Part shown: piece after piece, positions 2,890 to 46,939 of the stretch
How the letters are laid out: each line of letters begins with the position of its first letter
Numbering within the stretch: position 1 is the stretch's first letter
Assembly: GCA_016928395.1 (NCBI GenBank)
Contig: JAFGKV010000114.1
Span: 16,525-80,524, forward strand
Reading direction: 5' to 3'
From: Candidatus Fermentibacterota bacterium
GTDB lineage: Bacteria; JAFGKV01
Length of the DNA stretch: 64,000 nucleotides
Position numbers and translations under genes: made by a program
The notes under the pieces: model-generated
The model's database searches: none
Seen by the model: only the letters and a program-made list of their open reading frames with translations
What the model was told of the DNA's origin: nothing

Positions 2890-4194
2890 ATGAAGTTCTC
2901 CATCGATACCATGGGATGTCAGATGAACAAGGCCGACAGCGAACGAGTGGCTGGTGCCCTCCTGGCAACCGGGTGGAGTGAGGCCGACAGTATGGACCAG
3001 GCCGACATGGTGCTGGTGAACGGCTGCGTCGTTCGCGCCAAGGCGGAGCAGAAGGCATTGCTCCGGGTTCGCGAACTGCTTCAGAGGCAAAGGCCTCCGA
3101 AGGTGGGCCTCATCGGATGCGCGGCCCAGTGGCGTGGGGCCGGGCTATTTCGCGAGCTACCCGCCCTCCACCTCATGGTGTCCCCATCCCGGCTGGATGA
3201 ACTGCCGTCCATCGCCTCAGAAGGAGGATGTCTCCTGGGCGAGAGCGAATTGCGGTCTCCTGGAACCGTAATTCGACGCCGTTCGGGAATCAAGGCCTGG
3301 ATTCCTGTCATGCACGGGTGCGACCACGGGTGTACCTTCTGTGTGGTGCCGCAGACAAGAGGCCATGAGACATCGCTTCCCCCTCCCCATGTAATGCGGA
3401 TCGCGTCCGAGGCAGTTCGCGCGGGGCACGTAGAACTCGATCTTCTCGGTCAACGCGTCTCGGCATACCGGTATCGCGGAGTGACATTCGCCGCCTTGGT
3501 GCAACAGCTGGCCCTCATGGCCGGTGTGAAGCGGATTAGATTCACCGCACCGTATCCTGCTGATGTGGGGGATGACTTGTTGCAGATCATGGCCGACAGC
3601 AGAGTGGTGGAACACAGACTCCATCTGCCGCTGCAGTCTGGTTCTGACCGGGTTCTTGCCCGTATGGGAAGAGGGTACACAGTCTCAGAGTACATGGGCA
3701 TTGTGGAACGCGGAAGGTCGCTGATGCCTGACTTTGGCTTGTCCACCGACATTATCGTTGGGTTCCCGGGAGAGACGGAAGCGGACTATGCGACCACCGA
3801 GCGGCTGGTCCGCGACGCTGAGTTCGACACGGCATTCACTTTTATGTTTTCACCCCGCGCAGGAACACCCGCCGCGGCCATGGACGGCCAGATACCTCAT
3901 TATGTCAAGAAAGAACGGCTTGCTCGGCTTATCTCGGTCCTGCACGACACGTTGGAAAGACGGCTTGCCAATTTTGTCGGCACCACCATGGAGGTACTGG
4001 TGGAGAGACTTGACGAATCCACTGGAGATCACTCCGTGGGAAAGGCATCCAATGGCAGAGTTGTCGCCATCGCGGGGCGCCATGCGGCCGGTGAGCTGGT
4101 GACGGTGAAGGTGACAGGCCTGCAGGGTCACACACTGAACGCGGTACCCGTAGACGAAGGAGGCCAGAGATGTGGTTTGTCCGTTGGCTCGTGA
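2890..4194 (+). CDS. miaB: tRNA methylthiotransferase, MiaB family (radical SAM)
   Basis: N-terminal MTTase domain MKFSIDTMGCQMNKADSE. Radical-SAM CDHGCTFCVVP (CxxxCxxC). C-terminal TRAM-like region. About 434 aa, typical for MiaB. Confidence 0.75.
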   Translation: MKFSIDTMGCQMNKADSERVAGALLATGWSEADSMDQADMVLVNGCVVRAKAEQKALLRVRELLQRQRPPKVGLIGCAAQWRGAGLFRELPALHLMVSPSRLDELPSIASEGGCLLGESELRSPGTVIRRRSGIKAWIPVMHGCDHGCTFCVVPQTRGHETSLPPPHVMRIASEAVRAGHVELDLLGQRVSAYRYRGVTFAALVQQLALMAGVKRIRFTAPYPADVGDDLLQIMADSRVVEHRLHLPLQSGSDRVLARMGRGYTVSEYMGIVERGRSLMPDFGLSTDIIVGFPGETEADYATTERLVRDAEFDTAFTFMFSPRAGTPAAAMDGQIPHYVKKERLARLISVLHDTLERRLANFVGTTMEVLVERLDESTGDHSVGKASNGRVVAIAGRHAAGELVTVKVTGLQGHTLNAVPVDEGGQRCGLSVGS

Positions 4195-4514
4195 TTGCGA
4201 TTGTCTTCGTTGCCCTGCTATTCTTCGGGTTTCAGAACTCAGGTCAGATCGTGCAGCAGCTATGGATCGTACGTACGATCTACAACGTTCCGCTGCTGCT
4301 GGTGCTCCTGGCTTCATTTCTCCTGGGCATGGTCGTCATGTTCTTCATCGCCAGCGTCGAGTACTTTCGGATGCAGGCCAAGGTACGAGGCGTCCGCAAG
4401 GAACGGGATCGTTTGACTGAGCAGGCACAAGGTTTCCAGCGAATACCCCTCCAGGACATTGATGATGCCCTGACGGACAACGCGGACGACGCGGGCGGAG
4501 GAGGAATGGGATGA
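4170..4514 (+). CDS. lapA: LapA-like (DUF1049) inner-membrane protein
   Basis: 114 aa with two TM helices (WLVIAIVFVALLFFGF; LLLVLLASFLLGMVVMFFIA) and a charged C-terminus. Lies immediately upstream of, and overlapping, a LapB-like gene, which is the canonical lapA-lapB arrangement. Confidence 0.55.
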   Translation: MWFVRWLVIAIVFVALLFFGFQNSGQIVQQLWIVRTIYNVPLLLVLLASFLLGMVVMFFIASVEYFRMQAKVRGVRKERDRLTEQAQGFQRIPLQDIDDALTDNADDAGGGGMG

Positions 4515-5671
4515 CCTCCACGGCGAACACGTCCATCCTGCTCGGCCTGCTGGCAATTGTCCTTCTAATCCTGATGCTTCTGCGCGTCGATCAAAGGCGA
4601 AAGCGCAGACAGCGGCAGCGAGCGTATCCAGAGTATGTGGAGGGGCTCCACCTGCTCCTTCGAGGGCGAAAGGACGCCGCAGCTCGGGCGTTCCGGGCCG
4701 CCATTGAGTCGGGTCCCTACGCCCTGGAGGCTCGGCTCCGCTTGGGGGATCTGCTCAGAGCGCGAGGCGCCGTCGAACAGGCTGCGCGGCTGCACGAATC
4801 CCTCTTGTCCTTCCCTAGCATACCGGTAGCCCTCCGTCGCGACGCGGCGCTCGCCTTGGCTGATGACCATAAGGCGGCCGGGAAGTCCGAGGCCTCGATC
4901 GATGCCATCCAGCGGGCCGTGACCGCCATCGGCAATGACGAGATGCTCCTCCAGCGCCTCCTGCAGGCGCTGGAGGAGAACGGGCGCTGGGATCGGGCCA
5001 TGGATGCCGCACGCACCCTGGAGAAAATGAGTGCGCGATCAGTCAAACCCCGCGCGGCATTGTACCGAGTCGAGCGGGCTCGAGAAGCACTGGCCTCTGG
5101 CAATCTCCGCCGAGCCCGCGCGGATCTGCGAAAAGCGCTGGTCGAGGATCCCAAATGCGGACCCGCCCGCCTTCTCACGGGTGATGCCTTCTTTCAGGAA
5201 GGGGATCTCGACAAGGCCGTTGCTGAATGGCTGCGCCTGGCCGAGGACGTACCAGAGCTGGCATCGCTGGCCTACTCCCGCATCGAGCCGGCGCTCTATG
5301 ACTCCGGCGACTACGGGAGGATCCTCGCCATCTACAACTCAATACTCCAGAAGCGCCCCGGCGATGTGGAGACGCTGTGCCGTCTGGCACGCCACGATGA
5401 GCGTATCGGTTCTCTGGAGAAGGCAGTGGAACGCGCCCACCAGGCTTCAGAATCCGCCCCGGGCACGATCTATCCCCGTTCGATCATGGCAGCCTACCTC
5501 TGCGACCTGAACAGGCCAAAGCCTGCGGGGATTCTCTGCCGGGAGATTGCTCAGCAGGCGCAGTCCGAGGTCTATCGTTGCCCGCATTGCGGTATCACGG
5601 GGCCTGATTTCGCCTGGCGATGCCCTTCATGCCTGCGCATCGGGTCATTTGTGCGGTCGAAATCCGGCTGA
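4511..5671 (+). CDS. lapB: LPS assembly protein LapB (YciM): N-terminal TM, TPR repeats, C-terminal rubredoxin-like Cys4 finger
   Basis: N-terminal TM LLGLLAIVLLILMLL followed by a K/R patch. TPR helices. C-terminal CPHCGITGPDFAWRCPSCLRIGSF with two CxxC motifs, typical of the LapB metal-binding domain. Confidence 0.7.
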   Translation: MTSTANTSILLGLLAIVLLILMLLRVDQRRKRRQRQRAYPEYVEGLHLLLRGRKDAAARAFRAAIESGPYALEARLRLGDLLRARGAVEQAARLHESLLSFPSIPVALRRDAALALADDHKAAGKSEASIDAIQRAVTAIGNDEMLLQRLLQALEENGRWDRAMDAARTLEKMSARSVKPRAALYRVERAREALASGNLRRARADLRKALVEDPKCGPARLLTGDAFFQEGDLDKAVAEWLRLAEDVPELASLAYSRIEPALYDSGDYGRILAIYNSILQKRPGDVETLCRLARHDERIGSLEKAVERAHQASESAPGTIYPRSIMAAYLCDLNRPKPAGILCREIAQQAQSEVYRCPHCGITGPDFAWRCPSCLRIGSFVRSKSG

Positions 5672-5673
5672 GC

Positions 5674-6582
5674 ATGTCTCGACTCCTCGCCATACTGATC
5701 GCGATGGGGCTGTTCATGGGACGAAACGTCTCCATCGCGAGGGGGACGGAGTTCGACGCCGATTCCTGCTTCAAAGACCTTCGCCGCGCAGTCGGTGAGA
5801 CCACTTCCGTAGCCGGCGTCGAGTATCTATCCGGCCTCTATGCCGTAGGTCGGATTGACGAGGCGCTGGATGCGTGGCGCGCCTTAGTGGATGCTACGCC
5901 ATCCGTTCTGTCCAGAATAGATCACCTTTACTGGTTCTGCCTCACGCTCTTGGAGACCGAACGGTCGGGAGAGGCCGTGGCACTTCTGGAGGATGCCCGG
6001 GCTTCCGGCCTTCTGGACAGTCATCGCTCCTACCTTCACTCCATGACCAAGGAACTGCTTTGCGCGGCCTACCTTGAGTTGGAGGAGTTCGAACAGGCCG
6101 TCGCATTGGCGGCGGAAATCGCCCGTCACGGCGTCGTACCGGAGGCCAGAATCCTGGCCCTGTACGACGTGGCTCGGGCTAGGGAGGGATTGGGTGATAC
6201 AGACGGCGCCCGGGAGGCCTGGGAGCTTTTGACATCCACGGCGGAAGATACTCCTGAAGCGGTCCGTGCCCGAGAACGCCTGGGCAGGATACAGGCCACG
6301 CCGCGGGTGCCCATCCCCCCAGGTTCAGACATGCCGGGAAATGCCGTCTGCCTTCACTTGGGTTCGTCTCGTAACCATACGGCTGCAACGTCGTGGGCCG
6401 CCATGGCCCGTGCACTGGGTATTGCCACCTTCATCCGCGACGACACAACCCCAGCCGGCAGAGTCTTCACGGTTCACACGCCCCGCCTCACCTCATTCCA
6501 AGATGGATTGAGAGCCCGAGCCCTCCTTACGGCTTCAGGTCACAATGATGTGGTAATCGTGCCGTGCGAAGGCCTTGAGTGA
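5674..6582 (+). CDS. Exported TPR-like protein with C-terminal SPOR (peptidoglycan-binding) domain
   Basis: Likely start at internal Met (MSRLLAILIAMGLFMG, signal-like); the ORF itself begins at 5620, overlapping lapB. The C-terminal ~75 aa (VCLHLGSSRNHTAATSWAAMARALGIATFIRDD...RVFTVHTPRLTSFQDGLRARALL) fits the SPOR fold pattern. Confidence 0.45.
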   Translation: MSRLLAILIAMGLFMGRNVSIARGTEFDADSCFKDLRRAVGETTSVAGVEYLSGLYAVGRIDEALDAWRALVDATPSVLSRIDHLYWFCLTLLETERSGEAVALLEDARASGLLDSHRSYLHSMTKELLCAAYLELEEFEQAVALAAEIARHGVVPEARILALYDVARAREGLGDTDGAREAWELLTSTAEDTPEAVRARERLGRIQATPRVPIPPGSDMPGNAVCLHLGSSRNHTAATSWAAMARALGIATFIRDDTTPAGRVFTVHTPRLTSFQDGLRARALLTASGHNDVVIVPCEGLE

Positions 6583-6608
6583 CGGGGCAGTAGTGCCGTC
6601 GATGACCT

Positions 6609-9236
6609 ATGAATCGCCCCGCTGAGAACACCAGCGCCACAGGCAGGCGTACCGCAGGGGCCAAGACCGCGACCCCCATGATGCGCCAGTACTGGAGCGT
6701 GAAACGGCGCTATCCCGGCGCGTTGGTGCTGTTCAGACTGGGTGACTTCTACGAGACCTTCGGAGAAGACGCAGCCCTAGCTTCCAAAGTGCTGGGCATT
6801 GCCCTCACCTCCCGCGGCGGGGACATCCCTCTCGCCGGCATCCCATTTCACAGCGCGGACCCGTACATCGACCGTCTCGTGGCCGCCGGACACAAAGTGG
6901 CGATCTGCGAGCAGCTCGAGGACCCCGCAAAGGCCAAGGGCATCGTACGGCGGGACGTGGTACGCGTGGTCACTCCGGGCACGGTACTCAGTGAAGGGCT
7001 TCTCAACGCCGGGGCACCCACCTACCTGGCCGCCGTGAATCCGGGTCCCTCCCGCTGGGGGCTCGCCATCGTGGACATCGCTTCGGGTGAGTTCAAGGCC
7101 ACCGAACTCGCACTCAACGAAGTCGGCGAGGAAATCCAGCGCGTGTCGCCTGCGGAGCTGCTGGTACCCCGATGGCTACGGGACCAAGATGCGCTCCATC
7201 AGGTTCTGGCGGTCGTACCGCACGCAGCGGTGGAAGCCCGGGAGGATTGGGTATTTGACGGAGAGGCAGGCGCCGACCTGCTGAATCGTCACTTCGGAAC
7301 AGCCACGCTGGAGGGTTTCGGTCTTCACTCCGGCTGCGCCGCCGTCGGCGCAGCCGGTGCGGTGATTCACTATCTCCTGGAGACCCAGAAATCGGGACTT
7401 GGCCATATCAGGTCCCTCCGGGTGTATCATCTCTCCGAATTCATGCGCCTGGACCGGCATACGCGTCGGAACCTCGAACTCGTCGACTCCTTGGATCCCG
7501 ACGACAGGGACGTGACGCTGCTCGCGGCCCTGAATCGCACGTGTTCGCGCATGGGCGAGCGACTGCTGCGTCGTTGGATCCTGGAGCCGTTGCTTGACAT
7601 CGACGCCATTGAGGAACGGCTGGATGCCGTACAGGCTCTCGTGGATGACGACCTTGGGCGGTCAGAAGTGCGGGGTCTTCTTTCCTCCATGGCAGACATC
7701 GAACGCCTGACGGGTAGGATCGGATGTCGCGCCGCCTCGGCCCGCGATCTGGTCTCCTTGGCATCGTCTCTGGAGCATCTTCCCCGGCTTGCGGAGCAGC
7801 TGTCGAAGAGCACGAGCTCGTTCTTGGGGCAGACCGCCATGAAGCTTCGGGGTGAGCAGGAGATTGTCGAGGAGATCCACCGGGTCCTGGTTGACCGCCC
7901 GCCCCCTCACCTGCGGGCTGGCGGGTATGTACGCACCGGTTGCGATACGGCCCTGGATGAACTGCGAGCGGCCGCCCGCGACGGCAAGACCTGGCTGTCG
8001 GAACTGCAGCAGCGCGAGCGTGACGATACGGGGATCCCCAGCCTCCGGGTCGGTTTCAACCGGGTATTCGGGTTTTACATCGAGGTGACCAAGCCTCATC
8101 TACCCCGGGTGCCGGAGCGCTACCTCCGCAAGCAGACCCTGGCCAATGCGGAGCGCTTCTACACCGCGGAGCTGAAAGAGAAGGAATCGCTGATTCTGGG
8201 AGCCGAGGAGAGGGCGCTGGAGCGGGAACGCGAGCTGTTCGACGCGCTGCTCATTTGGCTGGAAATCAGGCTAACCGCTCTCCTGACCATGGCGTCAGCC
8301 GTGGCAACTGGGGACGTCATTCAGTCCCTGGCGCAGCTCGCCAGGGAGCGATCCTACCGGAGACCAGACATTGACAGCTCCGCTAGAATCTCCCTCTCAT
8401 CAAGCAGGCATCCCGTGGTGGAGCAACTCGGCACTGAGCCGTTCATGCCAAATGACGTTCTGCTTGACAACCAGGACCATCAGCTCGTCCTGCTCACGGG
8501 CCCCAATATGGCCGGTAAGTCGACCTATCTTCGCCAGGTCGGACTCATCGTCTTGATGGCCCAGATCGGCTCGTTTGTGCCGGCCGAGGCCGCGGAGATC
8601 GGCGTCGTGGATCAGATCTTCACCCGCGTCGGCGCCACTGATCGGTTGGCCCGGGGTCAGAGCACGTTCATGGTGGAGATGATCGAGACTGCGTCCATCC
8701 TGCATCATGCCACGGACAGGAGCCTCGTGCTCTTGGACGAGATCGGCCGGGGCACTAGTACGTACGACGGGCTCGCCATAGCCTGGTCTGTTGCCGAGCG
8801 CCTTCACCAGGGGCCAATGACACCACGGACCATATTCGCCACTCACTACCATGAGTTGACCGCGCTGGAGGCCGATTTCCCCCGCATCGTCAACTACAAC
8901 GTAGCGGTCCGCCGGGAGGGGGACCGGGTTCTGTTTCTCCACCGTATCCAACGGGGCGCAGCCAGCAGCTCCTACGGCATCGAAGTGGCCCGGCTTGCAG
9001 GGCTGCCAGCCGATGTCCTGCTGCGGGCAGCCGAGATTTTGGCTCAGCTGGAAGACCACCCCCCAGCCGCACGCACGCCCACGATCCGCAGAGCGGTATC
9101 CGACCAACTGGAGCTTTTCGGCGCCCCAGAGGATCCCCTCAAGTCTAGACTCCAGGGGCTTGTGGTCGACCAGATCACCCCGTTGCAGGCGCTGCACTTG
9201 CTCCACGAGCTCAAACGGCTGGCCCGGGACAAGTAG
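6609..9236 (+). CDS. mutS: DNA mismatch repair protein MutS
   Basis: N-terminal MMRQYWSVKRRYPGALVLFRLGDFYETFGEDA (mismatch-binding domain). Walker A GPNMAGKSTYLRQ. FATHYHELT and DEIGRGTSTYDG motifs. 875 aa. Confidence 0.92.
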   Translation: MNRPAENTSATGRRTAGAKTATPMMRQYWSVKRRYPGALVLFRLGDFYETFGEDAALASKVLGIALTSRGGDIPLAGIPFHSADPYIDRLVAAGHKVAICEQLEDPAKAKGIVRRDVVRVVTPGTVLSEGLLNAGAPTYLAAVNPGPSRWGLAIVDIASGEFKATELALNEVGEEIQRVSPAELLVPRWLRDQDALHQVLAVVPHAAVEAREDWVFDGEAGADLLNRHFGTATLEGFGLHSGCAAVGAAGAVIHYLLETQKSGLGHIRSLRVYHLSEFMRLDRHTRRNLELVDSLDPDDRDVTLLAALNRTCSRMGERLLRRWILEPLLDIDAIEERLDAVQALVDDDLGRSEVRGLLSSMADIERLTGRIGCRAASARDLVSLASSLEHLPRLAEQLSKSTSSFLGQTAMKLRGEQEIVEEIHRVLVDRPPPHLRAGGYVRTGCDTALDELRAAARDGKTWLSELQQRERDDTGIPSLRVGFNRVFGFYIEVTKPHLPRVPERYLRKQTLANAERFYTAELKEKESLILGAEERALERERELFDALLIWLEIRLTALLTMASAVATGDVIQSLAQLARERSYRRPDIDSSARISLSSSRHPVVEQLGTEPFMPNDVLLDNQDHQLVLLTGPNMAGKSTYLRQVGLIVLMAQIGSFVPAEAAEIGVVDQIFTRVGATDRLARGQSTFMVEMIETASILHHATDRSLVLLDEIGRGTSTYDGLAIAWSVAERLHQGPMTPRTIFATHYHELTALEADFPRIVNYNVAVRREGDRVLFLHRIQRGAASSSYGIEVARLAGLPADVLLRAAEILAQLEDHPPAARTPTIRRAVSDQLELFGAPEDPLKSRLQGLVVDQITPLQALHLLHELKRLARDK

Positions 9237-9237
9237 C

Positions 9238-10956
9238 ATGGCTCCCATCAGACTACTAAGCGAGCGTGTCATCAATCAGATCGCGGCAGGTGAAGTGATT
9301 GAGCGACCGGCTTCTGTGGTGAAGGAATTGGTCGAGAACTCCCTGGACGCTGGCGCGGAGTCGGTGACCGTCGAGGTGGACCGAGGCGGCACGCGACTGA
9401 TCCGTGTCAGCGACAATGGAGCCGGCATGTCCCGCGATAGTGCGCTGTTGTGCTTCGAGCGTCACGCCACCAGCAAGATCGTCACTGAGCATGACCTGTT
9501 CTCCGTGTCCAGTCTGGGATTCCGGGGAGAAGCCCTGGCCGCCATTGCGGCCGTGGCGAGGGTGGAGATTGAGACAGCGGAACACGACGCTCCAATCGGA
9601 ACGAGAGTCGCCCTGTCGGCTGGCGCCGTGGATGCCGTGGAGGATAGTGCGCGGCCGCCGGGCACCACCATCGCGGTGCGCCACCTCTTCTTCAATGTCC
9701 CGGTTCGCCGTGGGTTCCTTCGCAGCGTTGAGAGCGAGACGCGGGCAGTCATGGATGTCGTGTTCCGTATCGCCATAGCCAGGCCCGCGGTGCAGTTTCG
9801 CCTCGTGGTTGAGGGCCGGGAAGTATGGAATATGCCGCCAGTGGGCGATATGAAGGGACGGCTGCACCAGCTTATCGGGGCACAGCGAACTGATGAGCTC
9901 ATCCCCGTGCGGGCCTTGGCCCCCGGTGTCGCGGTGGAGGGGTTCGTGGGCGTACAGGCGGCCGCACGTTACAGCAGGCGCCAGCAGGTGGTGGCCATCA
10001 ACGGCAGGCCGGCGGATGCCCCTATCATACGCGCGGCGCTGGTGGAGCTGTTGCAGGGAGGAGGAGGAGGCCGGGCGGAGGCATACCTCTCACTGAGAAT
10101 CGATCCCTCGGCAGTCGATGTGAACGTGCATCCGGCCAAGCGCGAGGTGCGGTTCCGCGAGCCGGGCCGTATCCGCGCGGCCCTGGCCGCCGCCATCAAG
10201 GATGCTGCCGTGCGCGCAGGTACCCTAGCCCAGGAGTATCCAGTATCCACCGACGGTATGACACTGCAGAGGTCACCACAGCCCCGCTCCGCGGAGTTTC
10301 TGAGTCTTGTGGCGGAGGAGAGCGTCGCCTGGGAACACCTCGCCCGGTCCGAGGCTCCCACCGCGGGTAGCACCCGTGACACCCCGCCACGGGGCATCCC
10401 GCTCATCCAAATCGCCCGGACCTTCGTGGTCGCCAGGGTAGGCGATACGCTGACGGTATTTGACCAGCACGCCTGCCATGAGCGGATCATGTATGAAGAG
10501 ACTCTGAAACGATTGGCCGGCACCAGAGGCATGGCGCAACAGCTCCTCTTCCCCATCACGGTGGACCTGACCCCGCAGGAGCTCTCTCTGGCGCAGGAGT
10601 ATGAAGAGGAGCTTCGATTAGTCGGATTCGAGATCCGTCAGTTCGGCAGGGCCACAGTTATCGTGGAGGCGGTCCCGGCGGACTTCCAGGGAGAGGTGAA
10701 CGAAGAGCTGGTCCGCCAAGTGCTGGCAGGAATCGGGGAAGAGAAGGGAGCCATGGGCGGCCGGCATCACAGGGTTGCCAGCAGCATCGCATGTCATGCC
10801 TCCGTGCGTGCGGGCGACGCGCTACGCGACGAGCAGATGCGTGATCTGATCGATCGTCTCCTGGCTACCGAGGCGCCCCACACCTGTCCCCATGGTCGCC
10901 CGACCTTCATCCAGATTACCGCCCAAGAGCTGGAACGACGTTTCCAACGGGTCTGA
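9238..10956 (+). CDS. mutL: DNA mismatch repair protein MutL
   Basis: GHKL ATPase N-terminus MAPIRLLSERVINQIAAGEVIERPASVVKELVENSLDAGA. The start was chosen at the Met just after the mutS stop; the ORF track extends upstream to 8995 in the same frame. C-terminal dimerisation domain. Confidence 0.9.
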   Translation: MAPIRLLSERVINQIAAGEVIERPASVVKELVENSLDAGAESVTVEVDRGGTRLIRVSDNGAGMSRDSALLCFERHATSKIVTEHDLFSVSSLGFRGEALAAIAAVARVEIETAEHDAPIGTRVALSAGAVDAVEDSARPPGTTIAVRHLFFNVPVRRGFLRSVESETRAVMDVVFRIAIARPAVQFRLVVEGREVWNMPPVGDMKGRLHQLIGAQRTDELIPVRALAPGVAVEGFVGVQAAARYSRRQQVVAINGRPADAPIIRAALVELLQGGGGGRAEAYLSLRIDPSAVDVNVHPAKREVRFREPGRIRAALAAAIKDAAVRAGTLAQEYPVSTDGMTLQRSPQPRSAEFLSLVAEESVAWEHLARSEAPTAGSTRDTPPRGIPLIQIARTFVVARVGDTLTVFDQHACHERIMYEETLKRLAGTRGMAQQLLFPITVDLTPQELSLAQEYEEELRLVGFEIRQFGRATVIVEAVPADFQGEVNEELVRQVLAGIGEEKGAMGGRHHRVASSIACHASVRAGDALRDEQMRDLIDRLLATEAPHTCPHGRPTFIQITAQELERRFQRV

Positions 10957-10959
10957 GTG

Positions 10960-11470
10960 CAGGACGGTCTGTAGTTGGCTATCGGCTGTCGGCTATCAGG
11001 CCCGCCCAGCGCTACCAGAAACCGTTGCCCTCGTAGGGGCAACCGTCTCTGGTCGCCCGTGGGGCCGGGATGGGGTTTGCTATCGCAATCGCTATCGGTA
11101 TCGAGAGACGCGGTCCCGTGAACGAGTACGTGAACGAGTACGAGTACGAGTGCTAGTACGCAGTCGGGATGTACTCTCACACGAGTTCTCAGTTGTCAGT
11201 AAGGCCTCTGGATGCGAGAGCACCCAGGTTTTCGATGTGGAGAGTACGGCCGGCTGTTGGCTATCGGCTCTCAGCTATCGGTTCTCAGCTATCGGCTGTC
11301 AGCTATCGGCTGTCAGCTATCGGCTGTCAGCTATCGGCTGTCAGCTATCGGCTGTTAGCTATCGGCTGTTAGCTATCGGCTGTTAGCTCACTCCTATCTC
11401 CTCACTCAGGGTCGGTATCGGTATCGTAATTGACGAGCTGGGGCAGTCGAGCACGAGTATGTGTACGAGC
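10960..11470. repeat. Mosaic intergenic repeat element, copy A (contains hairpin GTTGCCCTCGTAGGGGCAAC and a 14-bp tandem array)
   Basis: Modules X (ggctatcgg...caggcccgcccagcgctaccagaaaccgttgccctcgtaggggcaaccgtctctggtcgcccg), Y (ggtatcgagag...gagtacgagtacgagtg) and Z (cagtaaggcctctggatgcgagagcacc...gagagtacggcc) recur at 35790-36010, 54596-54775 and, inverted, 56585-56895. Spurious ORFs translated across it mirror each other (for example RPALPETVALVGATVSGRPWG vs RPALRGTVAVAGATVYGRPQG). Confidence 0.8.
11250..11395. repeat. 14-bp tandem repeat array (cagctatcggctgt), about 10 copies, inside repeat copy A
   Basis: Direct reading: cagctatcggctgt x5, then tagctatcggctgt x3, preceded by degenerate copies (cagctatcggttct, ggctatcggctct). 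No spacers, so not CRISPR. Confidence 0.85.
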
Positions 11471-11818
11471 ATTGCATCGACTCTCGCACAGGTTCCGGCC
11501 CCGGGCCTTGCCCTGCTCATACATAGGGAGACTTCTAGGGTTGCCGCGTGAAGTCACAGGTTAGGTGTACTAAACTCTGAACCTGGACCCTCTCTCGTAG
11601 TCCGCTCCCGCCACGCGTCGCTCCTCTCTCACAGTCGAAACCCCTCCGCTCCCCTGTTCCTGCCCGCGCGGCGCCGAGTGGCACTCTATTTGCGTAACTC
11701 ACCTCCGACAGGGCGATATCGGTGTGCGGGCGACTGGGTCGTCGCAGAATGCAACGGCAGTCCCGCAACTTTCCGGGCGAGGGGCAGTAATCCTGATCCC
11801 CAGAAGACCTCACGGACC

Positions 11819-13000
11819 ATGAGGATGGCGATGCGCATACACAAGCCGCTCGAACTCTGCCGGGTTGACCGTGCGTTGATTTTGGCCGCCCTGCCCATGC
11901 TGTTCTATGCGGTGGGCACGGCAGTAGTGGCCCGTGACCTCCAATCCCACCTGCCGTCCGGTCCTTCCCGGCTGGTCTTCTCGTCGGCCGTCGACTGGGC
12001 ATTGGGCGTGGTAGCCGGATATGCTGTTCTCATCGCACTCGGTGTTGTGCTGCGTCACCGATCGCCATCGAGCGGTGTCTTCGTGTACATGACCCTGGTC
12101 TACTTCGCCATCAATAACGCGATTCTGGCCACGTTCATCGGGCCACTCTCCAGCCCGCCCTGGCTCTCCATCCTGGGGCTGGCAGTACTAGGCCTTCTCC
12201 TCCTGGGTTCCCGGGAAGTCTTCACCAGTATCAGCATCTACCTGGTGGCATTGGGCCTCATCCATGCGCTGGGGACGACCGGCAGGCTTCCTTACCGGTA
12301 CATCTTCGAGGAAGGCGCGGCGCCTTCGTGGTGGATGTGGCGGATGGCAGTGGTCACCATTGCCAATACCGTGATCATCGTTCTGGTTACCGCCTATGTC
12401 GTTGCGGCATGGCAGCGGCGGGAATCCAGTTTCCGCGATCTTTCCAACCAGGATGATCTCACCGGCGTGGGGAATCGCCGCTTTCTCAGCCATGCTCTGC
12501 GCACTGAATTCTCCCGCGCCCGCCGCTATGGCCGGGAGATGACCTACGCCATTGTCGATCTTGACCACTTCAAGCGTGTGAATGACCGGCACGGCCATCC
12601 CATTGGAGACTTCGTTCTCAGGGCAACGGCAAAGGCTTTGACCGCCTCCACGCGGGAAAGCGACACGGTCGCCCGCTGGGGAGGCGATGAGTTTGTGCTG
12701 CTCTTGCCCGAAACAGGCGTGTCAGGTGCACAGGAACTGGCCGAACGGTGCAGAGCCGCCATTCGCGCGACCGTGGCCGCCGAGACGGGGATAGGGATCA
12801 CCAGCAGCGTCGGCATCGCCTCAATGCGCCACGAGGGTCTTCACTCCCCGGATGATCTGGCTCGGATCGCGGACACAGCCCTGTACGCGGCCAAGCAGGC
12901 CGGTCGGAATCGCGTGGTGATCGCCGCCGAGCCGGCGAAAGACGGCGTCGTCACCTTTCCTCGAATCGTCTCTCAGAATCCGCGCCCCAACGCTATGTGA
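11819..13000 (+). CDS. Membrane-anchored diguanylate cyclase (GGDEF domain)
   Basis: Six or so N-terminal TM helices, then a GGDEF domain: GVGNRRFLSHAL...YAIVDLDHFKRVNDRHGHPIGDFVL...RWGGDEFVLLLPE (intact GGDEF motif). Start placed at an internal Met cluster (MRMAMRI); the ORF begins at 11678. Confidence 0.75.
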   Translation: MRMAMRIHKPLELCRVDRALILAALPMLFYAVGTAVVARDLQSHLPSGPSRLVFSSAVDWALGVVAGYAVLIALGVVLRHRSPSSGVFVYMTLVYFAINNAILATFIGPLSSPPWLSILGLAVLGLLLLGSREVFTSISIYLVALGLIHALGTTGRLPYRYIFEEGAAPSWWMWRMAVVTIANTVIIVLVTAYVVAAWQRRESSFRDLSNQDDLTGVGNRRFLSHALRTEFSRARRYGREMTYAIVDLDHFKRVNDRHGHPIGDFVLRATAKALTASTRESDTVARWGGDEFVLLLPETGVSGAQELAERCRAAIRATVAAETGIGITSSVGIASMRHEGLHSPDDLARIADTALYAAKQAGRNRVVIAAEPAKDGVVTFPRIVSQNPRPNAM

Positions 13001-14589
13001 ACGCGACCCTGGAGCGGATCACTCCCGCGGGGCACGCCGTAGGCTAGTTCGATCATGCCCACTGTGGTGCGAGCCATGATACCCATCCCGACCCCCAGCA
13101 GTCCTTCATGGCGCTCACCCACTTGATACACGCCACAGTCGACAAACGCGAAAAGTGATGATGCACCGCGCGATACGCGATGCAACTCCATCACGATCCA
13201 CCCGGCGCTCTCTGTACGGAATTGGGCTTCACGGTAGCCGCGCACGGTCCGTGCGCCACCCACCGAGAAGCGCTCGGGAAGCGGAAGCTCCTGACCTCCG
13301 TGTACGGCATGCCGCGCAGCACCACGAAGGACTGCCAGGATCCCCGACCCGAGCCCCAGCGATCGCCGGACGTCGACCTCGACACGTACGACAGGCGTCA
13401 CGATCTCTGAGGCAATCTCACGCAGTTCCTGGTACCCGACCCTCAGACTCACCCAGGATCCCGTGGGAGGGACATCGTCGCCATGCTCCCTGTTCCAGAT
13501 TCCCTTTCCCCACGCCTCATCCGCCCTGGTTGAGGCAAGAGGGGCCCCTTCGCCCGGAATCACCCGCCGGCCACGATACCCGATGTAGCCCCTGAAGCTG
13601 CCTCCGAGGTCCCAACCAAGGGCGACCGTTCCATCCCGCTCCACCCAGAGGGTGTCTTCCACCACCTGATTGATGCCGATCTCCAGCGACGGCGGCAACC
13701 CAAGAATCCACGGCTCACGGTACGTCAGCGCCAAGTCGGTTCGCCCAGCGCCACGGGCTTCCCATCGGAACGATGCTTCCCGGGCCGTGCCCGCGATGTT
13801 GCGAAATGCGGCCTGCACACTGCCCACCACCGCGCCGTCCCTTGCAAGACCCACCGCGCCCCGGGCTGTATGGGTAACCCGCTCCACCAGGGGAAACCGC
13901 ACCACAACTCCACCAGGGTCGATGCCGCGCAGAAGTACGGGTTCACCAACCGAGGAGTAGTACCCGGTTTCTCGCAGTCGAGCCACCGCACGATCCATGC
14001 CGCTCTGACGGTACGGCATGCCTGGCCTGATTCCCGCCAGTTTCGACACTACGGAAGCTCTCGTTCTCACAGAATCCGATACCTCGATGCGCTCGATGAC
14101 ACTCCGCGGGCCTGCAGTCGCGCCGACGCGCAACGTCACCATCCCGGCACTGCTGTCCACATCCACATGTCGAACGCCGAGAGAAACAAATGGAAACCCC
14201 GCCTCCTCATGCGCTCCGAGGAGTGTGCTCAGCCTCGCAGTGACGACGCCTGCCTCCCACGGACTCCCTGCCAGATCCTGCAACCGCAGCACTGCATCAG
14301 CGGCATCCGACGAGGCGCCATCCACCACGATACGAGCCACAGTGTATCGCCGCCCGGGAACAAGGCGAAGCGTACGCACGCCTTCCGCCGCGGTGGTCTC
14401 GAATCGTGCCTCGAAAAAACCGTTCCTGCCCAATTCGACCAGTATATCCTCCTTGACGCAGGATTCCCGCCCACTCTCGGTGGTGTCGGCACATGGGGCA
14501 GCGAATCGGGAGGCGGCCGACTCCGGTAGGATGTCACTCATCTCCCACACGGTGGCCATGAGCCCCATCGCTACGACTGCGCAGATCAT
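12973..14589 (-). CDS. Omp85/BamA-TamA family outer-membrane protein
   Basis: Signal-like N-terminus MICAVVAMGLMATVW. Long soluble POTRA-like region followed by a beta-rich C-terminus ending ...VHIALGRGF (terminal Phe typical of OM barrels). The start ATG shares one nt with the upstream stop (TGATG at 14587-14591). Confidence 0.6.
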   Translation of the reverse strand: MICAVVAMGLMATVWEMSDILPESAASRFAAPCADTTESGRESCVKEDILVELGRNGFFEARFETTAAEGVRTLRLVPGRRYTVARIVVDGASSDAADAVLRLQDLAGSPWEAGVVTARLSTLLGAHEEAGFPFVSLGVRHVDVDSSAGMVTLRVGATAGPRSVIERIEVSDSVRTRASVVSKLAGIRPGMPYRQSGMDRAVARLRETGYYSSVGEPVLLRGIDPGGVVVRFPLVERVTHTARGAVGLARDGAVVGSVQAAFRNIAGTAREASFRWEARGAGRTDLALTYREPWILGLPPSLEIGINQVVEDTLWVERDGTVALGWDLGGSFRGYIGYRGRRVIPGEGAPLASTRADEAWGKGIWNREHGDDVPPTGSWVSLRVGYQELREIASEIVTPVVRVEVDVRRSLGLGSGILAVLRGAARHAVHGGQELPLPERFSVGGARTVRGYREAQFRTESAGWIVMELHRVSRGASSLFAFVDCGVYQVGERHEGLLGVGMGIMARTTVGMIELAYGVPRGSDPLQGRVHIALGRGF

Positions 14590-17500
14590 CAGAAGTACGC
14601 TACCAATTCCATCGAACCTTCTCGCACTTTGCCCCTGCCCGCCTCTGATCCGACGCTCAGGCTCATGGTCAAGGTCAACTTCTCCTGTATCTTGTGTTCG
14701 CCCCCAACCTTGATGAGACGGGAGAAACCCTCTTGATCCACGCGGCGCAGCAATGGAGCCAACGCAGACCACGGCCCATCGGCCCGGCGCCATGCAAGCT
14801 CACCATCGATGCGGAACCGTCCTCTCCCGGGCAACGCCAGCCGAAGCCCGGGTGTGACCACGGCCGCATGGAGCACGGCCTCGGTCGCTTCTCTGCTCTC
14901 GCCCGCCACTTCTCGGACAACGTCTTCCCGGGAGAGCTCGCCGCTTCCCACCACATCCAACCGGCCTGTTAGGGGCAGAGAAACAGCCGGCGAGAATCCC
15001 CAGGTCTTCGACCTCGCCACCACCGTGCTTCCTCCTGAGAGCGCGGGACTCTCCCGTTCCTCGGATGAGGCGCGATACACGGCCATGTCGGTGGAAATCA
15101 TCTTCCATCTCGCTCCCCTCGCCCGCACGGCGCATCGCGTCTGATGACGCCTGGTGCGCTGGTCTACCCGCCGGTTATCCGCATCGGCAGCGTAGGCGAA
15201 CTGGGTTGCGATGGCGAACTCGCCGCCCGCGGGCCGAACCTGCATGCTGCCGTCTATTCGACTCACGCGCCGTAGTGTCGTGGAATCGCACTTCACTACT
15301 GCAGGGCGCAACAGGTAGAGATCCGTTCTCCTGTCTGACCGGCTGGTGACCTGGATACGACCGGTCACGTCAGCATTGATGCGCCGTCGCCACTCCGGGC
15401 CACGGCCCCCTGGTGCCAGGCGGAGCCCAACGATCCCCTCCACCAAATCTGTCCTCTCGGCGCCCCCGGAGGGCACCAAGACCTTTTTGTGAGTACCCAG
15501 TTCTGTGCCCACCCACGTTCCCAACGAATCATACTCGCCCACATTGGTCTCCCACGATTCCTCCGGGACCAGTTCTTCGACGAGCTGTTCCGATTGTCGG
15601 CCCGAGATCTTGTAGTCCAGCTCCAGCCTGGGCCCCCAGGACACCGGCAGTGCGGATACCCGTGCGGTGCCCAGAGAGGACACAATGTCCTCGGGCAGAA
15701 CCTTGCCTTGATCCGCCAAGAGCATCCGGTAGGCAGTGGCATAGCGGAGCCGGGTGTGGTTGAAGTCAACCCTGGCCGTCGCCTTGACACCCGCGTTCCC
15801 CGCCACGCCTATCTCCCACCACCGTCCTGACGAGCTGCGCATCCATGCGTCGGGATCCGTGATATGCTCTTTGGTGATTCGGCTGCCGGTTACCACCCTT
15901 GCCGTTGTAGCGGAGCGGCCGATTCGTGCGCCCGCGCCGATATCCATGTACCCCCGGCCCGAGAGCCCGCTGTTCGCCTCTCCCTTCCACATCACGAGAG
16001 GACTCCAGAAACCGAAAGGACGATCCAGCGCGCCGTCGGTCCACCACCGCGTGTCGTCTTTGGCCACTGATCGATTGAAGCGCCCAGTCATTGAATAACC
16101 GCCCGGACCCAGAATCGTCCCGGTCACTTGAGCCCGGCGGGATACTGTCGTCCCCCGGCGCATTCCACCGAGCACGAGGCCGAGGCGACCGTCCCGGGGC
16201 AGCCCGAAGGATAGATCCAGCGTGGCTTCGTCCTCGGAGCCAGTGTCGTCGATACCGCTCCAATCCCGTGTCCATTCCACCGGCCTGGCGCGGCCGGGCG
16301 TCGCGAATCCCGCTCCCTGAGACCGCCACGTTGCGCCCCCCTGCCACCACGGAAAGACTCCTCCCCCACCATGCGCCGACAGATGGGCGTACACTGCGCC
16401 CTGGGTATTGTCCCGGTCATCCCGTGAGGATAAGGTATTAGCATCCCGTACCCCCGCCGCTGCCTCTACATCCAGACGCATGCTGTCCTCTCCCACGCGA
16501 ATACCGACAACCGCGCTTTCGTGCGACCGGGGTGCCTGTACGGTTCGCCAGGCCACGTAGTCCCCGTGCCCGGGCCCGACATATGCCCAAAAGGCGGCGT
16601 CAACGCGCACATAGTCGCCTCCTGCATCACGGTAGAACGTCGCCTCAAAGGCCCCGGCGCCCCCCCCGAGCGAGCTGATCCGCCCCATGTCCACGGGAGT
16701 GTGCGGCGCCCGCGGGATCTCCCCCCCCCGCACTAAGATCACATCCTCACGGCGGTCGTATGCGCCTGCGCCCGTGCTTTCGGCTCGGGCTGCGAAAGGC
16801 CCGCCGCCCGGACCGTAGTACTCGAAACGCGAGCCGACCCGGCGATAGGAGCCCGAGGCCCCGACCGAATCGAACACTGCGTCCCATCCTCCCCCATCGT
16901 GGGGCACGAGAAAGCCAACGTGCAGGGTGTCATACGTGCCCGCGTTCAATCCGACAAACCGGTAGGTGGGCGCCCTGGCCCGTTCGGGATCGTCGCCCGC
17001 GGCCCCCAGCACCGCCCGCTCCTCCTCACCCAGAATCCAGTCCATGGGCTGGGATGCATCGTCTGCTTCACGAAACGCTGCGAATCGTATGGTTATTGCG
17101 TCGGAGATGCTGCGGACTGCCGTTGCCAGGTACACGGTGCGACGGTAGCTCTCCGCGGTGTACTGGAAGTCGACGCTGATGCGCGACAGTCCGGTAATTG
17201 GGCGGCGCTCGGTAAACGTCACCTCGCCAGTCGAATAGTCGATGGTGTAGTCCTTGTCACTGCCTCGGGCCACGGGCGATCCGTCGACCCAGACCCGTTC
17301 CGTTCCCGCCAGGATGACGACGGTACTGGCCCCGCCAGAGAGATGGCGCGCCAGGTAGTAGGGACCTTGGGCGCCGTCGATGCCGGTGAATTCGACACTC
17401 ACGAAGGTCCCCCCGGTGGAAGCCGCAGCCACGTCTCCGGACCACTGCCCGTGGGCCAGCGTACCGGCAACGCCCTGCATCTTTCTCTCAAGGCTCAAGA

Positions 17501-18194
17501 ACCTGAACCCTTCTGTGGCGATGGCGCAATCGCCCACGCTAAGACTGCTCTCCTTCCGCTTCAGCTCGATGACCACACGGTCAATGTCACGCAGCTCCTG
17601 GGTCGTGCCCTGAGGCTGGATGGGCGTACTCTGGTCACTCAGTGAGGCGGTGACCTCCACGTCGCCCGCCAGCCTCCCCTGAAGCTGTACCTGTAATGCC
17701 TGGTCAAGGCTGGGATCTTTGCCTGAGCCGAACCGTACGCCGATGGTCTTGGTGCCGGCGACCTGGAGGGAATGCTCGGACGAGAGATCGGCGGGGTATT
17801 CCGTGGCGGGAGCGGCCGCCGTCACTGCCACAATCTCTTCACCCGGCGAAGGCAAAGCGCGGCGCTGGAGGTGAACCGGTATGCCCAACGGCAGAAAACG
17901 ATACTGGATGCGTACCGTGCTTTCGGCCATGCTGGGGAGGAAGTGAATGCGATTGCGGAAGTCAAGACGAAACCCAGCGCCGGCGGAGAGAAGAGAGTCG
18001 GCCGCCCACACCACGACGGATTCGCCCACGACAAAGGAATCCGGCAGCGCCACCTCCCGAGGCACCGGTGGTCCTAATGCGATAACCCTCTGGATCCCTG
18101 GCGCCGCCTGGGCATTGAGCCCGAGGAAAAGCAGAAGGATGCAACAACGGATAGCCCAGCCCCTGCCTGACGGCGCCCGTTCTTCCCTGTCCAC
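14589..18194 (-). CDS. Giant (~1200 aa) exported W/G/R-rich beta-type protein of unknown family; C-terminal ...ELVAYF
   Basis: ORF 14589..18641. A probable GTG start near 18194 gives signal peptide (M)DREERAPSGRGWAIRCCILLLFLGLNAQA|AP. No motif recognisable to me. Terminal aromatic residue and abundant alternating aromatic/Gly segments suggest an OM beta-barrel or beta-rich exported protein. Confidence 0.5.
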   Translation of the reverse strand: MDREERAPSGRGWAIRCCILLLFLGLNAQAAPGIQRVIALGPPVPREVALPDSFVVGESVVVWAADSLLSAGAGFRLDFRNRIHFLPSMAESTVRIQYRFLPLGIPVHLQRRALPSPGEEIVAVTAAAPATEYPADLSSEHSLQVAGTKTIGVRFGSGKDPSLDQALQVQLQGRLAGDVEVTASLSDQSTPIQPQGTTQELRDIDRVVIELKRKESSLSVGDCAIATEGFRFLSLERKMQGVAGTLAHGQWSGDVAAASTGGTFVSVEFTGIDGAQGPYYLARHLSGGASTVVILAGTERVWVDGSPVARGSDKDYTIDYSTGEVTFTERRPITGLSRISVDFQYTAESYRRTVYLATAVRSISDAITIRFAAFREADDASQPMDWILGEEERAVLGAAGDDPERARAPTYRFVGLNAGTYDTLHVGFLVPHDGGGWDAVFDSVGASGSYRRVGSRFEYYGPGGGPFAARAESTGAGAYDRREDVILVRGGEIPRAPHTPVDMGRISSLGGGAGAFEATFYRDAGGDYVRVDAAFWAYVGPGHGDYVAWRTVQAPRSHESAVVGIRVGEDSMRLDVEAAAGVRDANTLSSRDDRDNTQGAVYAHLSAHGGGGVFPWWQGGATWRSQGAGFATPGRARPVEWTRDWSGIDDTGSEDEATLDLSFGLPRDGRLGLVLGGMRRGTTVSRRAQVTGTILGPGGYSMTGRFNRSVAKDDTRWWTDGALDRPFGFWSPLVMWKGEANSGLSGRGYMDIGAGARIGRSATTARVVTGSRITKEHITDPDAWMRSSSGRWWEIGVAGNAGVKATARVDFNHTRLRYATAYRMLLADQGKVLPEDIVSSLGTARVSALPVSWGPRLELDYKISGRQSEQLVEELVPEESWETNVGEYDSLGTWVGTELGTHKKVLVPSGGAERTDLVEGIVGLRLAPGGRGPEWRRRINADVTGRIQVTSRSDRRTDLYLLRPAVVKCDSTTLRRVSRIDGSMQVRPAGGEFAIATQFAYAADADNRRVDQRTRRHQTRCAVRARGARWKMISTDMAVYRASSEERESPALSGGSTVVARSKTWGFSPAVSLPLTGRLDVVGSGELSREDVVREVAGESREATEAVLHAAVVTPGLRLALPGRGRFRIDGELAWRRADGPWSALAPLLRRVDQEGFSRLIKVGGEHKIQEKLTLTMSLSVGSEAGRGKVREGSMELVAYF

Positions 18195-18240
18195 CGCGCC
18201 TAAACCGTTCCGTCCACGGAACCGCGGGCGCGCCGTCGCG

Positions 18241-19095
18241 CTACGGCACCTCGGCCAGGGCAAGCCCCACGATCGTGTCGCTCTCACGTTCCGCGACAAG
18301 AAGCATGCCATCCGTGGCGAAACACACGGCGGACGGGCTGGCGAGTTGCGGCATGCCGGCAGGCGGGCATGACAGATCGTAGACGACACCGTTCTTGAAC
18401 ACCCTGACGACATGTGCCTCCTCGTCAACCATCGCGCCGAGCCCGTCTTTGCGAATGTCCACGCTCCCCGGCGATCCCCCCACCGCGATGGCTCCCCGAT
18501 GGTTGCCGTGTGTGTCAAAGAAGTGCACAAGGCCTCCAGCCTGATCAGACACCGCCACACGTCCAGCCGCACATGCGAGGCCGGCCGGTATGAGCGGGAT
18601 TCGCGGTTCGTCTCCTGCCCCGCTGAGTCGGCGCAAGCCATCGAAGGGGTCTGTTACCATGATCGTTCCTGAGCCCTCGTCGGCGACAAACACCCGCCCG
18701 TCGGGCAGCGAGGCCACTGCCAGGGGTTTCCAAGGCCACACTCCGCCACCGGGGCCACGGATCTCCGTCACGGGCACACCGGCTCTGTCGACCTTCAGCA
18801 TGCGTGAACCGTCGGTATCAGCCAGATAGACGAACTGCCCCCCCGGATCCGTGACTGCCACGCGGTCTGAGAACTCCATCCATCCCTGCCCATTCCCACC
18901 GAAGGAGCGGACATGCCTGCCGTCCATAGAAAAGAAGTGAAAACGGGCCACTCCACGGTCTCCCACCCAGAAACCACCATGGGGACTCCGCGCCAACGCC
19001 TCCGGGCCATGCAGGATGCCCGGCCCAACCACCACGGATGACGACATCACCGACACGGTCTCCATAGCGGCGGCCGTCAGCAGCGCAAGTATCAT
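18241..19095 (-). CDS. NHL-repeat beta-propeller protein (exported)
   Basis: Signal MILALLTAAAMETVSV. Repeated blades: GQFVYLADTDGSRMLKVDRAG, DGRVFVADEGSGTIMVTDPFDG, AGRVAVSDQAGGLVHFFDTHGNHRGAI, DGMLLVAERESDTIVGL. ATGA overlap with the tonB stop. Confidence 0.5.
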   Translation of the reverse strand: MILALLTAAAMETVSVMSSSVVVGPGILHGPEALARSPHGGFWVGDRGVARFHFFSMDGRHVRSFGGNGQGWMEFSDRVAVTDPGGQFVYLADTDGSRMLKVDRAGVPVTEIRGPGGGVWPWKPLAVASLPDGRVFVADEGSGTIMVTDPFDGLRRLSGAGDEPRIPLIPAGLACAAGRVAVSDQAGGLVHFFDTHGNHRGAIAVGGSPGSVDIRKDGLGAMVDEEAHVVRVFKNGVVYDLSCPPAGMPQLASPSAVCFATDGMLLVAERESDTIVGLALAEVP

Positions 19096-35777: not shown

Positions 35778-35789
35778 GAGGGCCCCGCG

Positions 35790-46861: not shown

Positions 46862-46939
46862 AGCGCCCCGCGTTGACGCGGAGCGCTTCAACCCACACCT
46901 TGTGCGACTCCTGCCGCACCACACCCTTGGAGGTCTCCC

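Follow-up and report, generated by a model that had tools for sequence, protein, structure and literature searches.

Recurrent intergenic sequences in a Fermentibacteria genome form a composite repeat with REP-like features

Two intergenic sequences about 45 kb apart and in opposite orientation resemble each other in a 64,000-nucleotide stretch of DNA (the window, at its full length), raising the question of what kind of element they represent. The original prediction described a mosaic, modular intergenic repeat family with four copies (A to D) and considered a mobile element of the MITE or REP type, a family of small RNAs or terminators, and a substrate for inversion as possible roles. We investigated the composition of these loci, their gene context and their relation to known repeat systems.

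The window has a GC content of 62.3%, and its MutL matches NCBI protein MBN1424283.1 (Candidatus Fermentibacteria bacterium) at 100% identity. The next MutL relatives in a database of 5.8 billion protein clusters share 70-74% identity, and none exceeds 75%. The genes in positions 1-10956 encode a TPR/CBM60 protein, Wzy_C, a MiaB-like protein, LapA, LapB, an ORF product, MutS and MutL; the ORF between LapB and MutS has no Pfam match, and its counterpart in Ca. Fermentibacter daniensis carries a SPOR domain. By Pfam, all of the approximately 46 proteins of the window look like products of ordinary chromosomal genes, and no transposase, integrase, RAYT or Y1_Tnp domain was found among them. All four loci are intergenic, in agreement with the prediction.

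Self-BLAST of the window resulted in three collinear blocks of inverted homology between A and B: 10976-11110 against 56755-56617 (modules X-Y, 139 nt, 79% identity, E = 2e-27), 11196-11277 against 56818-56736 (module Z and the start of X, 83 nt, 85.5%) and 11497-11564 against 56384-56317 (module W, 68 nt, 89.7%). The best local alignment reached z = 53 against dinucleotide shuffles, and the three longest runs without a mismatch measure 22, 22 and 19 nt. The similarity between A and B is real and far above chance. The predicted common modules were thereby recovered, whereas W, the best conserved block, falls outside the interval first described and had been overlooked.

Copy A is not shuffled and consists of two tandem units (A1 and A2) followed by W (coordinates of all features are collected in Table 1). 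A1 runs through the Z-tail, GGCTATC heptamers, X, Y, ACGAGT hexamers and the end motif TACTCTCACAC. A2 begins with TTCTCAGTTGTCAGT and continues with a full Z, the start of X, a 14-nt tandem array, CTCACTCCTATCTCCTCACTC, Y' hexamers, an ACGAGT-like stretch and GACTCTCGCAC. The two units are collinear from the Z-tail/X-start through an ACTCTC[A/G]CAC end motif, with 81% identity at their beginning (10961-10997 against 11243-11279). In A2, the 14-nt array occupies the site where the X core would be expected. It contains runs of four and three identical 14-nt units, which suggests recent or ongoing slippage.

On the minus strand, copy B is composed of the end-motif-like GGTGTCTCGCATC, Z, X, Y, two ACGAGT hexamers, an insert of about 210 nt and W. 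Within the insert we found a partial W-like sequence, W' (56601-56558, minus strand, about 75% identity by eye; a weak match with E = 0.17), and an inverted copy resembling the start of W (56474-56495). Together they form a 22-nt inverted repeat that is 82% complementary, with the arms 76 nt apart. The module order given previously was reproduced, as (Z-tail)-X-Y-Z-X' in A and Z-X-Y in B, and it differs between the copies because the units recur cyclically in a short tandem array, with two units in A and one in B. The idea that both were excised from a tandem X-Y-Z array therefore came close: A is a pair of tandem units, and GGTGTCTCGCATC, which precedes Z in B, resembles the end motif of a preceding unit.

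Table 1. Positions of the units, modules and motifs in the window
Feature	Position	Strand	Remarks
A1, first unit of copy A	10948-11185	+	leave-one-out nhmmer E=2.5e-8
A1 Z-tail	10948-10975	+	overlaps last mutL codons and stop
A1 GGCTATC heptamers	10977-10997	+	
Module X in A	10997-11070	.	~75-nt imperfect palindrome
Module Y in A1	11060-11110	+	G-rich stretch, GCTATC/GGTATC hexamers, end CGAGAG
A1 ACGAGT hexamers	11117-11160	+	
A1 end motif TACTCTCACAC	11172-11182	+	
A2, second unit of copy A	11186-11495	+	leave-one-out nhmmer E=1.7e-5
TTCTCAGTTGTCAGT in A2	11186-11200	+	
Z in A2	11196-11262	+	
14-nt tandem array of CGGCTGTCAGCTAT in A2	11251-11388	+	unit equals two heptamers; 9.9 copies, 94% matches
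CTCACTCCTATCTCCTCACTC in A2	11387-11407	+	
Y' hexamers in A2	11412-11426	+	
A2 end motif GACTCTCGCAC	11479-11489	+	
Module W in A	11497-11564	+	113 nt upstream of GGDEF gene start (11678)
Copy C, strongly diverged collinear unit	35787-36062	+	leave-one-out nhmmer E=0.0017; E=5e-4 in a further comparison
C array-like TTCTCAGTTGTCGGTTCTCAG	35839-35859	+	
C Y-like hexamers	35894-35953	+	
C end motif TACTCTC	~35995	+	followed by faint W-like tail
Locus D, not a unit	54628-54688	+	(CAGGGTT)3.6 heptamers and 21-nt motif CTCACTCCTATCTCCT[C/T]ACTC common with A2
Module W in B	56317-56384	-	380 nt upstream of DUF6600 gene start (55937)
B-specific insert	56474-56601	.	partial W-like W' and inverted W-start-like copy
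ACGAGT x2 in B	56600-56611	-	
GGTATC hexamers in B	56624-56650	-	
Modules X-Y in B	56617-56755	-	leave-one-out nhmmer E=3.3e-7
Module Z in B	56755-56830	-	preceded by GGTGTCTCGCATC; 13-bp stem with Z core GATGCGAGAGCACC

To the two remaining predicted copies, C and D, the unit model applied unequally. In leave-one-out nhmmer searches with the Y region, each omitted unit (A1, A2, B and C) was the best non-training match, and at E < 0.3 the window yielded no other matches except minus-strand self-matches within C. C is a real unit, collinear with A2 over about 270 nt (array-like 14-mer, Y hexamers, ACGA-rich stretch, ACTCTC and a faint W), yet it is strongly diverged and contains neither the X core nor Z. 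A permissive Smith-Waterman comparison of C gave z = 5.7 against A2 and 4.5 against A1, scores reached by none of 200 shuffles, part of which reflects common hexamer content since shuffling destroys the microsatellite structure. Homology of C is therefore indicated by the shared order of motifs rather than by the score alone.

D was not confirmed as a copy. Its unit-level alignments did not exceed z = 1.1, and it has only a 21-nt heptamer-type motif in common with A2; GGGTTCA-type heptamers are common to D, C and positions 2849-2866. The short motifs quoted for C and D are weak on their own: unrelated coding regions of the window have exact 16-17-mers in common on four occasions, and GGGTTCAGGGG shows no enrichment. 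A further candidate family motif, AGGTTGAC (in B, in D and at 32718), was rejected as unenriched (3 matches against 1.4 expected). Y-type hexamers are enriched, with 10 matches against 1.15 expected. The description as a mosaic, modular intergenic family thus holds for A, B and weakly for C, and fails for D; the four copies become three loci with four units.

The relation of these units to sequences outside the window was addressed by several searches. Among 185,579 species-representative genomes, which do not include the source genome since the copies in the window did not come up, an exact X 19-mer gave six matches of 19-21 nt in unrelated taxa, which we attribute to chance. Exact W and Z 20-mers had no match in JGI metagenomes, and neither the X 19-mer nor W and Z 22-mers occurred in viral contigs. 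Three relatives identified by their MutL (Ca. Fermentibacter daniensis, L001; a JGI contig, L008; a Logan contig, L009) gave no module matches above chance, and their intergenic spacers after mutL are short. Plasmid searches (blastn, distant mode) returned low-complexity look-alikes only: (GGCTGTT)n on a Thiothrix plasmid, (GGCTGTC)n on a Streptomyces plasmid and, within a coding gene, a hexamer look-alike. The (GGCTGTY)n heptamer arrays of the Thiothrix and Streptomyces plasmids are of independent origin. As far as can be seen, the family is lineage-specific, and a full-text literature search yielded no description of such repeats in Fermentibacteria.

These results would also suit a purely local event, in which ectopic duplication or gene conversion within the ~45-kb region generated the copies and no genome-wide family exists. 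Only three loci are known, no module turned up in the outside collections searched, and the relatives at 70-74% MutL identity lack the modules. However, the outside negatives relied on exact 19-22-mers, with no relative above 75% MutL identity in the databases, and no flanking genes were co-duplicated. Additionally, the gene contexts are unrelated: A lies in tandem between mutL and a GGDEF gene (11678-13000), B in the divergent region between a DUF6600 gene (54837-55937) and an ABC gene, and C between the convergent genes for an aminotransferase and YbjQ. Taken together with the occurrence in both orientations and the unequal divergence (79-90% identity between A and B, C barely alignable), this pattern is typical of dispersed repeats, and we consider a local duplication unlikely.

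The three differing contexts also argue against a dedicated promoter or leader. A related proposal is a shared cis-regulatory cassette, in which W, and perhaps the arrays, would co-control the GGDEF and DUF6600 genes, with array length tuning expression. Relative to the gene downstream, A and B are oriented alike, W lies nearest to that gene and faces its 5' end in both, and W conservation as well as the enrichment of Y-type hexamers would be in line with this proposal. Against this stand the unequal distance from W to the start codon (113 nt in A, 380 nt in B), the position of C between two 3' ends and the fact that with n = 2 a shared orientation has a chance expectation of 50%. No sigma-70-like promoter was found in A, and by inspection a sigma-54-like GG/GC pair is one base out of place. 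Scans for promoters and terminators yielded no consistent pattern. We therefore regard a common regulatory cassette as unlikely.

Module X is the structured part of the unit. In A, the arms of its palindrome (11011-11030 and 11037-11056) are complementary at 17 of 20 positions around the loop TCGTAG. The two hairpin strings quoted in the original prediction are present (11024-11043 in A, reverse complement of 56688-56707 in B); they represent the 7-bp tip of the larger palindrome, and the quoted stem is degraded in B. There, 12 Watson-Crick and 2 wobble pairs remain out of 20, and by inspection two of the five substitutions in the inner 20-bp stem leave wobble pairs while three break pairing. 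B instead forms a perfect 8-bp stem, GGGCGACC/GGTCGCCC, as part of an X core that reads GCAG followed by GGGCGACC-GTCTAT-GGTCGCCC (56673-56694, 8 of 8 pairs). The corresponding right half in A is GTAG (11033-11036) followed by GGGCAACC-GTCTCT-GGTCGCCC (11037-11058, 7 of 8 pairs). X can be described as two inverted units of about 22 nt, 6 nt apart, which occur within the window at A and B only. The position of GTAG in A and GCAG in B directly 5' of the 8-bp stem, seen in these two copies, corresponds to the form of GTAG/GYAG-tagged REPs (PMC3733652). Among the labels offered originally, REP-like is the best-fitting one for module X.

The folding of X also bears on the proposal of a transcribed structured RNA family (small RNA, terminator or 3'-UTR element) centred on its hairpin. 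The X fold in A was better than that of all 200 shuffles (z = -3.2 on the plus strand and -5.4 on the minus strand), and in B it was moderately better than shuffles (z about -2.5), whereas W and Z folded no better than shuffles. RNAalifold placed both copies in a 22-pair consensus hairpin with five one-sided changes, all wobble-compatible. The alignment of A and B contains no compensatory changes. The structure of X is thus compatible with a consensus hairpin and unsupported by covariation, which two sequences cannot supply, and the suggested covariance analysis did not strengthen the case for an RNA. The X stem-loop of A is found 55-100 nt beyond the mutL stop and is not followed by a U-tract on the plus strand; the only terminator-like site, a weak one, is on the minus strand in A. 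At gathering threshold, Rfam detected only two tRNAs in the window, and in E-value mode A and B gave only chance matches to the tandem array. With three pair-breaking substitutions in the inner stem of B and no X in C, we consider an RNA family very unlikely, and the suggested small RNAs or terminators were not supported.

Several other classes were tried and rejected. A protein-coding function is contradicted by a 4-nt indel in X-Y that shifts the only ORF common to A and B (about 4 synonymous and 6 non-synonymous differences by eye before the frames diverge), and the six-frame translation of all unique modules, concatenated so as to detect also spurious ORFs annotated over other copies, had no match among 5.8e9 protein clusters. 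The 14-nt units are arranged head-to-tail without spacers, unlike a CRISPR array. For an integron attC site, the ends and stem of X (GTTGCCC/GGGCAAC) do not fit GTTRRRY/RYYYAAC. By inspection we also dismissed interpretations of W, X and Y as sigma-54, parS, attC or G-quadruplex elements.

The suggestion of a MITE-like element was not supported. A size of 0.3-0.6 kb, the intergenic sites and the internal palindromes would fit such an element, and the Z region has weak inverted matches to DNA on the far side of W (p = 0.024 in A, 0.007 in B). However, the inverted partners are located in non-homologous flanks and the matched segments differ between A and B, so that there is no consistent terminal inverted repeat. 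Inspection of the homology boundaries (10948/11569 and 56830/56312) revealed no target-site duplication, for which the prediction had proposed to look. Many internal indels and the lack of a transposase in the window make a MITE still more doubtful, and we give this assignment little credence.

A and B had further been proposed as recombination substrates for a 45-kb inversion. They are inverted relative to each other, and A coincides with a turn in the cumulative G-C curve, which peaks at about 11 kb, and with the end of conserved synteny: the genes in positions 1-10956 are syntenic with Ca. Fermentibacter daniensis, and synteny stops exactly at the mutL stop codon. Efficient RecA-dependent exchange requires a perfectly identical stretch of roughly 25 nt at minimum and drops sharply as sequences diverge. 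A and B never share more than 22 nt without interruption, and their overall identity is 79-90% with indels, which makes them ill suited to homologous recombination. Moreover, a recent inversion would be expected to leave two skew turns, and only one was seen; after A the curve declines to the end of the window and does not turn at B. The two further relatives also have other genes after mutL, and since mutL has different neighbours in all three relatives, the break does not point specifically to an event between A and B. We conclude that an A-B inversion is unlikely, and a role of the pair as its substrate hardly credible. The skew switch and synteny break at A could reflect a replication terminus, an older rearrangement or a chimeric contig join; neither a dif-like site nor a DnaA-box cluster was found near the switch.

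The units are demonstrably homologous, non-coding, extragenic and heavily remodelled. Remodelling comprises a tandem unit duplication in A, the replacement of the X core by the 14-nt array in A2, duplication and inversion of W in B, and the loss of X and Z in C. We favour, with somewhat more confidence than doubt, the interpretation as a lineage-specific, non-coding, interspersed composite repeat of the BIME/REP-cluster kind. The unit would measure about 250-300 nt and consist of Z, GGCTATC-type heptamers, X as a GC-rich imperfect palindrome of two inverted ~22-nt REP-like halves, Y as a G-rich stretch with GGTATC hexamers, ACGAGT hexamers and a ACTCTCGCAC end motif, while W would appear only after the last unit. 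On this model, three loci hold four units: the tandem pair of A1 and A2, the inverted unit B and the heavily decayed unit C. By analogy with known systems, the units may have spread as passive or selfish repeats, either mobilised in trans by a RAYT-like enzyme or copied by recombination, and slipped-strand mispairing together with unequal exchange probably drives their present drift. A function, if any, would be incidental; for example, the X stem-loop after mutL may act as a REP-like hairpin at the 3' end of the mRNA.

Some observations fit the composite-repeat interpretation less well. There are only two X cores and four Y regions in 64 kb, the window encodes neither RAYT nor another transposase, and exact-word scans outside the window did not recover a genuine module. 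Most REP families have a loop shorter than the 6 nt seen here, the GTAG tag is found on two copies, and the orientation of W towards the 5' end of the next gene in A and B would also fit regulation. A bolder version, in which X is the recognition site of a RAYT-like enzyme in an abundant, undescribed mobile or structured-RNA family of a Fermentibacteria lineage, the microsatellites phase-vary neighbours such as the GGDEF cyclase, and insertions mark rearrangement hot spots, appears improbable to us.

The finding is real but ordinary, with no sign of a new mechanism, and beyond annotation it matters little: a species-specific mosaic repeat is recorded in the candidate phylum Fermentibacteria. 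Should the composite repeat be abundant genome-wide, it might be used as a marker for strain typing and would alert to MAG mis-assembly at repeat loci. It could also be a lead to a RAYT/REP system outside Proteobacteria, and the 14-nt array upstream of the diguanylate cyclase is a possible contingency locus.

REPs and BIMEs are among the closest known systems. As in these elements, X is extragenic and GC-rich and forms an imperfect palindrome, whose 8-bp stem follows immediately on GTAG or GCAG in the two copies seen (PMC3733652; PMC2817692). GTAG/GYAG-tagged REPs have stems of 6-13 bp and frequently occur as inverted dimers that fold into larger hairpins (PMC3733652), and the halves of X fall within the range of 20-40 bp imperfect palindromes with 6-13 bp stems; here, too, two inverted units can fold as one large hairpin. 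The extragenic location downstream of mutL agrees with REPs, whereas the divergent region that harbours B is less typical. The palindrome stands among the conserved modules Z and Y in mosaic combinations and with a tandem unit duplication in A, which resembles BIMEs, where REPs of alternating orientation are linked by conserved motifs and often amplified in tandem, as far as one REP-like dimer per unit and few copies can show. REPs usually exceed 100 copies per genome and are associated with a cognate RAYT (Y1 transposase) gene; two palindromes and no RAYT were seen in the 64-kb window. The loop has 6 nt instead of mostly 2-3 nt, and the long unique modules Z and W and the microsatellites are absent from BIMEs.

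Other modular repeats share parts of this architecture. BOX elements of Streptococcus pneumoniae have the modular structure boxA-boxB(n)-boxC with well-conserved modules of 45-60 nt. Like them, the units are non-coding, intergenic and modular, with one internal module variable in tandem number (the 14-nt X-start array, 1.5 to 10 copies); they are unrelated to BOX elements in sequence and come from an unrelated host phylum, their copies have diverged strongly, and what varies in number is a 7/14-nt microsatellite. SNRs of Deinococcus radiodurans and the neisserial and rhizobial NIME and RIME elements have tens to hundreds of documented copies. They, too, are species-specific intergenic repeats with sub-modules in varying combinations and orders, but show no sequence relationship to the units described here. 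The STRRs of heterocystous cyanobacteria are intergenic heptanucleotide tandem repeats. Short intergenic heptamers are also found in the window (GGCTATC, CGGCTGT/CAGCTAT, CAGGGTT and CACTCCT/ATCTCCT), although with other repeat units, in another lineage and inside a larger composite element. With MITEs such as Correia and ERIC elements (PMC3184786), the units share a small size, a non-autonomous nature, intergenic location and possible secondary structure, and differ in having no consistent terminal inverted repeats or target-site duplications. Intergenic repeats of a broadly similar, species-specific type are common in prokaryotes (PMC3372372; PMC3184786), which places the composite repeat among ordinary genomic features.

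The cumulative G-C excess reaches its maximum at ~11 kb and declines steadily from there to the end of the window. We compared window positions 1-13000 with 13000-64000 and found contrasting skew, with the turn at ~11000-13000. Plus-strand genes left of copy A (the intergenic repeat locus directly after mutL) show positive skew, whereas plus-strand genes at 42-64 kb show negative skew. The position of the turn matches both copy A and the point after mutL at which the gene order shared with Ca. Fermentibacter daniensis ends. The turn could mark the terminus of replication, a breakpoint left by an old rearrangement, or a chimeric join in the MAG; a search near the turn for dif-like and DnaA-box signals found none. 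Further along the window, the Omp85/POTRA protein (12973-14793) adjoins the 1350-aa ORF, which had no Pfam match at E<=1e-5, and the two could be a TamA/TamB-like pair.

The window has several other palindromes (see table). The two GC-rich ones look terminator-like but lack a clear T-tract, and they have no sequence relation to module X, the imperfect palindrome of the repeat units. The AT-rich near-palindrome looks like a putative operator. The perfect palindrome is low in GC, which is unusual for this genome. Additionally, the recurrent motif (A/G)AGGTTGAC may be a candidate -35-type promoter element, its count (3 vs 1.4 expected) being not above chance. A resemblance of ~48 nt was also observed between 32715-32761 and 56149-56196.

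The (GATG)n microsatellite and, after it, the CT-rich stretch both occupy the spacer that separates the DUF6600 gene from the AMP-binding enzyme gene, and a 14-mer is common to 2854-2867 and 54629-54642 in inverted orientation. Tandem repeats of 4-7 nt seem to be generally abundant in the intergenic DNA of this organism.

Features in the window and heptamer arrays of other bacteria
Feature	Position	Details
GGGTTCA/TGAACCC-type heptamer repeats	2849-2867, 35793-35803, 54628-54652	three different intergenic spacers
1350-aa ORF	14589-18641	minus strand
Perfect 26-nt palindrome GGACTATTCTACTAGTAGAATAGTCC	29854-29879	just downstream of EamA-like gene (29388-29813)
Motif (A/G)AGGTTGAC	32718, 54593, 56870	all + strand, intergenic
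GC-rich palindrome, 38 nt (89%)	46856-46893	3' end of glycosyltransferase gene
(GATG)n / 12-nt microsatellite	54491-54557	14 copies of GATG
CT-rich stretch, heptamer periodicity	54660-54760	ATCTCCT CACTCCT ATCTCCT TACTCTT ...
GC-rich palindrome, 30 nt (93%)	54785-54814	3' end of DUF6600 gene
AT-rich near-palindrome TATAGGACTGATCATAT/ATAGGACACGTCCTATA	56102-56135	core ATATAGGAC-n2-GTCCTATAT; ~170-200 nt upstream of DUF6600 gene
Related string GGGTTGAC	56152	related to motif (A/G)AGGTTGAC
Long pure array (GGCTGTT)n	L010 1500-1625	Thiothrix subterranea plasmid
Long pure array (GGCTGTC)n	L011 1501-1560	Streptomyces plasmid

Plasmids of unrelated bacteria also carry long arrays of pure heptamers, the one in Thiothrix being placed by the annotation within a hypothetical protein. 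Both heptamers, GGCTGTT and GGCTGTC, are close in sequence to the repeat unit that copy A carries in its 14-nt array.
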